Of a DNA stretch of 64,000 nucleotides, positions 48,304 to 49,995 are shown in pieces. Position 1 is the stretch's first letter, and every line of letters starts with the position of its first letter. Source of the DNA: a virus; the IMG/VR virus record IMGVR_UViG_3300036406_001149; one strand, given 5' to 3'. A program made the translations under genes and the position numbers. The notes below the pieces were generated by a model. It was not told the DNA's origin. It saw nothing but the letters and a program-made list of their open reading frames with translations, and did no database searches.

Positions 48304-48705
48304 TTATGGTTTAGACTTTATCCATTCTTTCAACTCTGTTTTGTTTTTATTGTATCCTACTCTTCTTTTTATTTCTTTGTTTTTATGAAACAAAATTTGA
48401 TCAGGTATTGCTTTTACTTTATACTCTTGTGTAAGATCTTTTCTTTTGTCATAATCTATATAGCATATGATGCTGTTCTCTATTAAAGTTAAATCATTAT
48501 GAATATCTTGTTTCAAAATATTACAGGCTCCGCACCAATCTGCTGTAAAAATCCACAACAAAGGTAATTCTGTATCTATTGCTAAAAGGATACTATCTTC
48601 TGCTGTTTTTACAAAAATAGGAGGGGCCGCAAATAAAGTCTGACTACTTAATAGTAATATACAGAATATAATAATGCTATGTACTAGATATTTGAGATTT
48701 GACAT
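48304..48705 (-). CDS. Exported thioredoxin-family protein
   Basis: FTADWCGAC, cis-Pro AIP, N-terminal signal-like segment. Confidence 0.8.
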   Translation of the reverse strand: MSNLKYLVHSIIIFCILLLSSQTLFAAPPIFVKTAEDSILLAIDTELPLLWIFTADWCGACNILKQDIHNDLTLIENSIICYIDYDKRKDLTQEYKVKAIPDQILFHKNKEIKRRVGYNKNKTELKEWIKSKP

Positions 48706-49594
48706 TGCCTAGTATTCTTCCTTTTTGGGTCTTAATAACATACCCCATTCTGACCATAAAAGGCTCAATACTATTTTCGATAGTCTCTATCGCAATACCT
48801 GTTAGAGAAGACATACTCTTTAATCCAATTGGATTTAGTTTGTTTTTAGATAATATATCTAAATATAACCTATCATACACATCTAGTCCTCGATGATCTA
48901 TGCCTTGTGTATTAAAAATCTCATCCACAGATGGCTTATTATTAATATGGTATGTTACATAGCTCTTATACCATTGTAGGCGGGCATTTAAAATACGAGG
49001 AGTACCTTTACTTCGTTTTGCAATCTCTAAAAGATCATCATCAGAGATGATAATACCTAGTTTATTCGCATTCAATCTTGCTAGTTTAGCTAGATCACTG
49101 TCACTATAAAATGACAAATGTTCTTTCATAGTAAATCTATCATAGAATGGTTGACTCAGACTACCTCCACTCGTAGTTGCTCCAATAATAGTAAACATTG
49201 GAAGATCAATAGTTTCTGGTTTATTTTCGATAACTAAAGATAATACAAAATCTTCCATAATAGGATATAGAAATTCTTCAACAATTTTTGGCAATCTATG
49301 AATTTCATCTATAAACAATACTGATCTTGGAGCTATCCCCATTAAATATGGTAATAGATTTTTAATGCTTCTAATATTAGCCCCATTGACTGTGTAAAGA
49401 TTTACATTTAGTTCTGTTGCTATAGCACTCGCTATGGTTGTTTTACCAAGACCTGGAGGCCCATCTATTAAAACATGAGGCATAACCCCACTAGCATCAG
49501 ATCCTTTAAATGCACTAGAAACTATTTTTAGTCTACTGATAACATCGTCCTGACCAATAATATCTTCAAAACGAGAAGGTCTAATAGTATTCAT
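48677..49594 (-). CDS. ruvB: Holliday junction branch-migration ATPase RuvB
   Basis: IRPSRFEDIIGQ, GPPGLGKTT, FIDEIHRL, GATT, DRF, GTPR, EP.MVR.G winged helix. Confidence 0.95.
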   Translation of the reverse strand: MNTIRPSRFEDIIGQDDVISRLKIVSSAFKGSDASGVMPHVLIDGPPGLGKTTIASAIATELNVNLYTVNGANIRSIKNLLPYLMGIAPRSVLFIDEIHRLPKIVEEFLYPIMEDFVLSLVIENKPETIDLPMFTIIGATTSGGSLSQPFYDRFTMKEHLSFYSDSDLAKLARLNANKLGIIISDDDLLEIAKRSKGTPRILNARLQWYKSYVTYHINNKPSVDEIFNTQGIDHRGLDVYDRLYLDILSKNKLNPIGLKSMSSLTGIAIETIENSIEPFMVRMGYVIKTQKGRILGNVKSQISST

Positions 49595-49995
49595 ATAGCA
49601 GCACTTCCAAAGTTAGATAAACAATGTTTAATAAGTTTGACGCAATCAATTTCCTGTGTTTCTTCAAAACTTTTTTCTATCAGAGATATCGCTTCTGATT
49701 CTGAGAAACCGTATTGAGATAGTATATGAACAGCATTTGTTTTTAAGTTCGTAGGAATACTCTTCTTAGAGGATACTTTCTGTGTGGGGTGTTTATTTTG
49801 TAGCTGTACATAGATGATTTTTATACCCTCAATAGGTTTGGGTTTGTAAATACTCCCACAATCACACACAATTTTAAAATTTGGAGTTTGACTTTCTTTT
49901 AATGAAAGCCAGTGTTTAATTTGACATTCTGTACATTCATATATAAAGTGTACATCATAATCAATCGGTTTCAGGTTTTTCTTGCGATGTTTCAT
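49591..49995 (-). CDS. Zn-ribbon protein with RuvA domain-III-like C-terminus
   Basis: CxxC...CxC N-terminus; AVHILSQYGFSESEA...KLIKHCL resembles the RuvA CTD (AL..LGY...EA...LIR.AL). Confidence 0.65.
   Translation of the reverse strand: MKHRKKNLKPIDYDVHFIYECTECQIKHWLSLKESQTPNFKIVCDCGSIYKPKPIEGIKIIYVQLQNKHPTQKVSSKKSIPTNLKTNAVHILSQYGFSESEAISLIEKSFEETQEIDCVKLIKHCLSNFGSAAI

Follow-up and report, generated by a model that had tools for sequence, protein, structure and literature searches.

The DNA analyzed here, hereafter the window, is a stretch of 64,000 nucleotides from the virus record IMGVR_UViG_3300036406_001149, a phage genome of 126,336 bp with an estimated completeness of ~91% (IMG/VR). 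The window represents the minus strand of this record; the G+C content is ~31% and nearly all genes lie on one strand. Unless stated otherwise, coordinates refer to the window, and all features located by them are on the minus strand. Two adjacent genes are the subject of this report. One encodes a RuvB AAA+ motor of 305 residues (48677..49594), assigned by Pfam and by its match to E. coli RuvB; the other encodes a partner protein of 134 residues (49591..49995), hereafter also termed mini-RuvA. The stop codon of the partner overlaps the start codon of RuvB by 4 nt (ATGA), which agrees with the original prediction of a full RuvB lying directly downstream of a 134-residue protein.

Architecture of the RuvB partner and of RuvB

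The partner consists of three segments: a basic N-terminal tail (K-N-L-K-P) with a four-cysteine zinc ribbon (residues 1–62, 49810..49995), a hypervariable flexible linker (residues 63–80, 49756..49809), and a three-helix domain (residues 81–134, 49594..49755). The first was delimited by invariant alignment columns and AlphaFold2, the second by an indel-rich alignment and low values of the predicted local distance difference test (pLDDT), and the third by homology to domain III of RuvA. In the AlphaFold2 model, computed from 54 sequences with a mean pLDDT of 83, the zinc ribbon forms two β-hairpins (pLDDT 91–96), and three helices are found at residues 82–133. The modelled zinc ribbon has a pLDDT of 89 in a further evaluation, with strands at residues 16–20 and 27–31. 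Residues P10, Y19, C21, C24, W29, V43, C44 and C46 are invariant, and the four cysteines (C21-x2-C24 and C44-x-C46) are kept in 54/54 partner sequences, as expected from the N-terminal CxxC/CxC zinc ribbon that the original prediction had described. The linker varies from 11 to 60 residues across the family, is rich in K, E, Q and P, and drops to a pLDDT below 50 at residues 69–77. It is analogous to the flexible linker of 15 residues that precedes domain III in bacterial RuvA (PMC2628435). Over 50 sequences, the mean net charge of the N-terminal domain is +6.2 (range +2 to +12), compared to -1.2 for the C-terminal domain.

The partner has no significant match in Pfam or PHROGs, and none in GenBank phages by tblastn. 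A single-sequence search of viral contigs also returned nothing, owing to a limit of sensitivity, as profile searches later gave hundreds of matches. The initial relatives numbered six; when 1.84 billion representatives were searched with the profile, the family grew to 551 clusters (at 50% identity) with E ≤ 1e-3, or 285 with E ≤ 1e-10, sharing length and architecture. Among the matches listed, the members range from 105 to 184 residues, and in nearly all the alignment spans the entire profile. Fold searches against BFVD and ESM-Atlas gave no named relative, and a literature search found no paper on this architecture of zinc ribbon, linker and RuvA domain III. The “RuvB helicase-like” protein of phage PaBG is an unrelated virion protein of 221 kDa.

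Three independent tests, by profile, profile–profile and fold comparison, identified the C-terminal domain of the partner as homologous to domain III of RuvA, bearing out the resemblance noted earlier. Searched against 177,635 distinct PDB sequences, the family profile found Thermus thermophilus RuvA as its top two matches (1ixs_A, E = 0.0011; 1ixr_A, E = 0.0088), the first of which comes from a crystal structure of domain III on its own in complex with RuvB. Alignment by hhalign of the partner family against 63 canonical RuvAs, taken from upstream of bacterial ruvB genes, superimposed partner residues 76–131 onto RuvA residues 152–204 with a probability of 90.4% (P = 1.4e-6); this is the check that the original prediction had called for. 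In an exhaustive fold comparison with 48,161 representative chains (VIA-align), the top four matches were all RuvA, two of them in RuvB-bound forms, with Z-scores of 8.2, 7.8, 7.0 and 6.9 and root-mean-square deviations of 1.5–2.1 Å over 48–51 residues. Foldseek also ranked RuvA first (probability 0.99), with an E-value of ~0.4 for this short domain.

Such a small fold raises an alternative, namely a generic three-helix bundle of the UBA type that makes no contact with RuvB, its adjacency reflecting conserved synteny within a replication block. UBA/CUE domains indeed appear in the same fold comparison at Z-scores of 4.7–5.7, the Foldseek E-value is high, and Pfam RuvA_C stays below threshold, with E = 0.19 in one of seven members. 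We nevertheless regard this alternative as highly improbable: the UBA/CUE matches rank under those of RuvA, no UBA match was found at the sequence level, and RuvA comes first in all three types of search, the hhalign match covering the whole domain with its conserved positions in register.

These positions also carry functional information. Within the ~50 residues of the C-terminal domain, G96 and E101 are invariant, and L92, Y95, F97 and K123 are conserved at 90% or more, giving the motif L92-x2-Y95-G96-F97-x3-E101 ... K123-x2-L126. When the two families are aligned by hhalign, their most conserved positions fall together: L92/L168, Y95/L171, G96/G172, F97/Y173, E101/E177, K123/R197 and L126/L200 (RuvA in Pantoea numbering, which is E. 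coli +1). In E. coli RuvA, the substitutions L167A and L170A abolish RuvB activity in vivo and leave junction binding unaffected (PMC2628435). Since the conserved positions of the partner align with the RuvA residues that activate RuvB, the partner retains the functional signature of domain III in addition to its fold. The remainder of RuvA has no counterpart in the partner: no Pfam match to RuvA_N (the OB fold, domain I) was found, nor any helix-hairpin-helix (HhH) family (domain II) among the Pfam matches of seven members at E ≤ 10, and the model displays β-hairpins and a zinc ribbon at this place.

The phage RuvB matches Pfam RuvB_N (6.6e-44), AAA_lid_4 (3e-8) and RuvB_C, the C-terminal winged helix (3.6e-16), all above cut-off, and among solved structures it is closest to E. 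coli RuvB (PDB 9dx4, 1e-61). Compared to bacterial RuvB, it lacks ~20 N-terminal residues. Among 50 RuvBs of the clade, the Walker A (GPPGLGKTT), Walker B (LFIDEIH), sensor 1 (GATT), arginine finger (DRF) and sensor 2 (GTPRI) motifs are invariant, and a basic triad of R/K288, K291 and R293 is kept within an R-T-x-K-G-R motif. By motif comparison, without explicit alignment, this triad appears to match R314, R317 and R319 of Pseudomonas aeruginosa RuvB, which lie in its C-terminal β-hairpin and make contact with DNA (PMC10071043). With intact catalytic motifs and the basic triad, the phage RuvB looks like a working motor. A role as the replicative helicase of the phage was ruled out, as a DnaB-like helicase is present.

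RuvBs of this lineage were found on 359 IMG/VR contigs at ~72–81% identity, many of them 100–240 kb in length. The closest cellular RuvB in the species-representative genomes scanned, from Planctomycetota, is 43% identical, and GenBank phages have none closer than 39%, mostly bacterial-type genes. Judged by these identities, the RuvB lineage is phage-specific. No match in GenBank phages exceeds 35% identity to the DNA polymerase of the phage, which indicates that the lineage is uncultured.

Pairing of the two genes and the presensor-1 hairpin of RuvB

To survey the gene pair, 80 viral loci were obtained via RuvB and then scanned with the partner family profile. A partner homolog (E-values from 1e-31 to 1e-50) lies directly upstream of RuvB in 73 of them, a pairing far beyond chance. 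In all 45 unique pairs, the distance from partner stop to RuvB start is between -29 and +5 nt, most commonly an 8-nt overlap, and the overlap of the two reading frames is maintained across the clade. This spacing indicates co-transcription and probable translational coupling; the persisting overlap also argues against mere synteny as the cause of the adjacency.

In bacteria, RuvA domain III contacts a surface of RuvB formed by helix α3 and the presensor-1 hairpin (PMC9477746). In the phage RuvB this hairpin (49199..49258) shows a gap of four residues against E. coli RuvB in a HMMER alignment. The span from MED to FT..GATT comprises 18 residues, compared to 22 in 79/80 bacterial RuvBs, and the G-x-G tip is missing. 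The shortening by about four residues that the original prediction had reported is thus real, and it extends over the clade: among 58 unique RuvBs, the hairpin has 18 residues in 45, 23 in 11 and 25 in two. The longer forms, 13/58, result from charged inserts at the tip. These are 5–7 residues long, rich in D, E and K, and fall into two registers (loci L038, L041, L053, L055, L056, L058, L062, L066, L072, L075, L079, L081 and L083); the tip is evidently a tolerant and evolving site.

The short hairpin is unchanged in the seven loci that lack a partner, two complete genomes among them; the present data therefore do not show that the hairpin change co-evolved with the partner. The co-evolved interface that had been proposed accordingly stays unproven, given that the shortening is clade-wide and independent of the partner, the tip varies in length and the complex prediction described below is weak.

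A hairpin shortened irrespective of the partner would also suit a host-directed function, in which domain III of the partner decoys or hijacks the host RuvB and the short hairpin shields the phage RuvB from host RuvA. The partner has kept the RuvB-activating residues of RuvA, and complementation between RuvA and RuvB across species is known (PMC9477746). Yet the partner is tightly coupled to the phage's own ruvB in every unique pair, it was seen here in loci obtained via this RuvB only, and a pure decoy needs no conserved zinc ribbon and linker. We thus give this possibility very little weight.

A complex prediction of RuvB with partner residues 78–134, both supplied as alignments, passed its mark with a score of 0.59, compared to 0.01 for the best control (controls 0.00–0.01), and was graded as weak support. 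Of 80 solved complexes, 58 attain this mark, as do two of 110 mismatches; both of these mismatches, but only seven of the 80 complexes, scored 0.60 or less. Contacts agree between runs to at least 95%, and the pLDDT of the partner is at least 86. The gap to the controls speaks against a domain devoid of RuvB contact. Physical binding of the partner to RuvB is already likely from homology and gene coupling, and the prediction adds a modest corroboration.

Neighbouring genes and the recombination repertoire

The local gene order is rIIA, rIIB, prim-pol-like, 137-residue protein, 143-residue protein, partner and RuvB. The conserved 143-residue protein (49961..50392) is encoded immediately upstream of the partner and overlaps it by 35 nt, preceded by the conserved 137-residue protein (50397..50810), which has no PDB or Pfam match. 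Both are present in 79/79 related loci, and are therefore steadier than the partner itself; in the partner-less loci the 143-residue gene directly abuts RuvB. Profiles of the two proteins, compared with the PDB as candidate junction binders, gave nothing significant. The 143-residue protein has weak winged-helix leads, namely AdcR/MarR at E = 0.28 and FUR, DeoR and DnaT-like Atlas matches at TM-scores of ~0.4 (model pLDDT 0.44). Either protein may belong to the RuvB module as an additional component. Further upstream are the prim-pol-like protein (50815-51972; phrog_2478/phrog_3123, with a weak RepB_primase match), a rIIB homolog (52128-52997; phrog_609, 9e-72) and a rIIA-like protein of 891 residues with a HATPase_c domain (53094-55769).

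On the other side, a thioredoxin-fold protein (48304-48705; Pfam 1.5e-12) with a signal-like hydrophobic N-terminus shares 29 nt with the 3' end of ruvB. Its gene occurs in 25/79 related loci, the downstream thioredoxin and HNH genes being variable. Also on this side are a trypsin-like protease (46792-47940), which has a signal-like N-terminus and a hydrophobic C-terminus, and an actin-fold ATPase (45788-46789) that begins 2 nt past the protease and matches Pfam Volactin, a haloarchaeal actin family, over its full length (1.3e-63). Among the related loci, trypsin is found in 71/79 and volactin in 48/79. The regions 4969-26780 and 37783-38895 encode a large cluster of glycosyltransferases, DegT-type aminotransferases, a pyruvyl transferase and RgpF-like proteins, along with a ribonucleotide reductase-like protein and an enzyme of the IMPDH/GMP-reductase family; the sugar-modification repertoire is extensive for a phage.

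A scan of the whole 126-kb record for junction-processing genes found no RuvA_N (E ≤ 10), RuvA_C, RuvC or RusA; the RuvA_C model also misses the window's own partner. The absence of an OB/HhH RuvA and of RuvC, originally noted for the window, thus holds for the entire record. Nor was any protein with an SF2 Helicase_C domain found in it, and hence no UvsW/RecG-type helicase is detectable. The record encodes a UvsX-like recombinase, the DnaB-like helicase, an exonuclease and a DNA polymerase, as well as an ATP-dependent ligase adjoined by a homolog of T4 endonuclease VII (E = 3e-13, above cut-off). By its gene content the phage would be able to make, resolve and seal junctions, and RuvB is its one evident motor for double-strand branch migration.

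The DNA polymerase (phrog_405) occupies two ORFs outside the window (G000:C1:115819-117693 and 118567-120129; L087:10020-11891 and 12768-14327), which lie ~870 nt apart and cover profile positions 42–614 and 623–1072. The gene may thus be split, or interrupted by an element such as an intron, intein or homing endonuclease.

With a UvsX-like recombinase, endonuclease VII and ligase in the same phage, Holliday junctions are the expected, default substrate of RuvB, the difference from RuvAB lying solely in how the motor is anchored. The original prediction had proposed instead that the motor is recruited to a substrate other than a RuvA-bound Holliday junction. In one form of this idea, the zinc ribbon sends RuvB to stalled or reversed forks, to the upstream prim-pol-like protein or the replisome, or to another DNA-bound protein, making it a RuvA-independent translocase. 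Such a role would fit the complete absence of RuvA domains I and II, which confer junction specificity, and the constant position of the module beside the prim-pol-like gene and the two conserved small proteins; zinc ribbons, moreover, frequently mediate protein–protein contacts, and the best fold match of this one is ZitP. However, the full set for making and resolving junctions is present, no other evident motor is there to migrate them, the ribbon has no identified binding partner, and its strongly positive charge is in keeping with nucleic acid. We consider such rerouting unlikely, though clearly less remote than the two alternatives above. Taken as a whole, all elements observed in the original prediction were confirmed, and its interpretation is supported in part: it holds for a partner with RuvA domain III that keeps the RuvB-activating residues, in a phage lacking an OB/HhH RuvA, whereas another substrate and a co-evolved interface remain unproven.

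A proposed branch-migration module and its known counterparts

We propose, as a moderately probable reading, that RuvB and the partner constitute a phage branch-migration module, in which domain III of a mini-RuvA adaptor docks onto and regulates the motor and the basic zinc ribbon anchors it on DNA. RuvB would act as an intact hexameric double-stranded DNA translocase, co-translated with its adaptor. Domain III would dock on the large domain of RuvB, at helix α3 and the presensor-1 hairpin, and there tether the motor and serve as nucleotide-exchange and ATPase regulator. It would thereby resemble domain III of bacterial RuvA, which tethers RuvB and acts as a nucleotide-exchange factor through the same two elements (PMC9477746). 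Through the linker, domain III would be joined to the four-cysteine ribbon, which may bind DNA or a DNA-bound protein, the least certain step, and which would take over the anchoring role of RuvA domains I and II. The module would move the junctions made by the UvsX-like recombinase during recombination-dependent replication and repair, after which endonuclease VII would resolve them and ligase seal the products. In this pathway RuvB would fill the role that UvsW has in T4.

Several points weigh against this proposal. Seven of the 80 loci have no partner, and two complete genomes, of 229 kb with terminal repeats and of 192 kb, hold none anywhere by the family profile; a move of the partner to another place in the partner-less genomes was sought with that profile and not found. 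Pfam RuvA_C found none there either, which is uninformative, as this model misses the window's own partner too. The losses are scattered on the RuvB tree, requiring five changes by parsimony, of which at least two are forced by supported branches of this quick tree. Such repeated, scattered loss indicates that the partner is a dispensable or replaceable accessory, replaced for instance by host RuvA; perhaps RuvB alone or host RuvA suffices in the partner-less phages. Repeated loss would also fit a generic helical bundle, and for so small a fold, similar to that of UBA domains, a Z-score of ~8 is not decisive by itself. The complex prediction gave weak support, and its pass may reflect memory of solved RuvA domain III–RuvB complexes. 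As for the zinc ribbon alone, profile matches in the PDB have E-values of 0.09 or more, and fold matches are generic only (Z ≤ 3.2, Foldseek E ≥ 0.2), the weak leads being ZitP, LysW and S27e. With no informative relative of the ribbon, its DNA binding is predicted from positive charge alone. Moreover, in the cryo-EM model RuvA is the fulcrum for the RuvB power stroke, and it is not evident that a zinc ribbon, as a monomer, could replace the junction-clamping fulcrum of tetrameric RuvA (PMC9477746). The incompleteness of the phage record, at ~91%, counts on the same side.

The proposed module bears on what each part of RuvA contributes. RuvAB is the textbook branch-migration machine of bacteria. 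Cryo-EM models assign RuvA two separable jobs, the tetrameric core being clamp and fulcrum, and domain III being tether and nucleotide-exchange factor. The phage family would represent a natural separation-of-function variant that has kept domain III alone, on a different anchor. With 134 and 305 residues, the two proteins make a small and tractable system for asking what domain III does by itself and whether a fulcrum is needed. The analysis also gives a putative function to a large unannotated protein family of 551 clusters, and describes a RuvB lineage that is specific to phages and occurs in large environmental ones. A bolder version, which we put forward as speculation with the odds against it, views RuvA domain III as a portable “RuvB handle” that was grafted onto a zinc ribbon in this uncultured clade, yielding a host-orthogonal RuvB that works without a junction-clamping tetramer, maybe on forks or other non-junction DNA, or anchored to a replisome protein. 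If true, the RuvA core, i.e. the fulcrum, would be dispensable for productive RuvB translocation in vivo.

Compared to bacterial RuvAB of E. coli, T. thermophilus and S. thermophilus (PDB 1ixs, 7pbl-7pbt and 7x7q), the phage pair shares the AAA+ motifs, the presensor-1 hairpin and the winged-helix C-terminal domain of RuvB. It also shares a partner gene immediately upstream, at the position of ruvA, whose product has a domain III bearing the motif L-x2-[LY]-G-[YF]-x3-E behind a flexible linker. The OB and HhH domains of RuvA, which form the tetramer and clamp the junction, are replaced in the phage by the basic four-cysteine zinc ribbon of 60 residues. The phage RuvB further differs in its hairpin, shorter by four residues and devoid of the G-x-G tip, in the missing N-terminal ~20 residues, and in an identity of at most 43% to any cellular RuvB found. 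RuvC is absent, and the resolvase would be endonuclease VII.

A dedicated branch-migration motor is expected in recombination-dependent replication of the T4 type. The T4 set comprises UvsX, UvsW, endonuclease VII (gp49) and ligase, and the present phage likewise has a UvsX-like recombinase, endonuclease VII and ligase, along with homologs of rIIA and rIIB. In place of the SF2 helicase of the UvsW/RecG type, an AAA+ RuvB with a mini-RuvA would act, a functional analogy rather than homology. UBA/CUE domains share the general three-helix fold of the partner C-terminal domain; RuvA domain III outscores them in fold searches, sequence-profile searches do not return them, and the partner possesses the RuvA-type motif. 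Finally, the RuvC-only sets of cultured jumbo phages also belong to large phages with their own junction-processing genes, and according to a survey of these phages, their resolvases are not coupled to a RuvB (PMC7824862). The phage described here presents the reverse arrangement, with RuvB and a putative adaptor and no RuvC.

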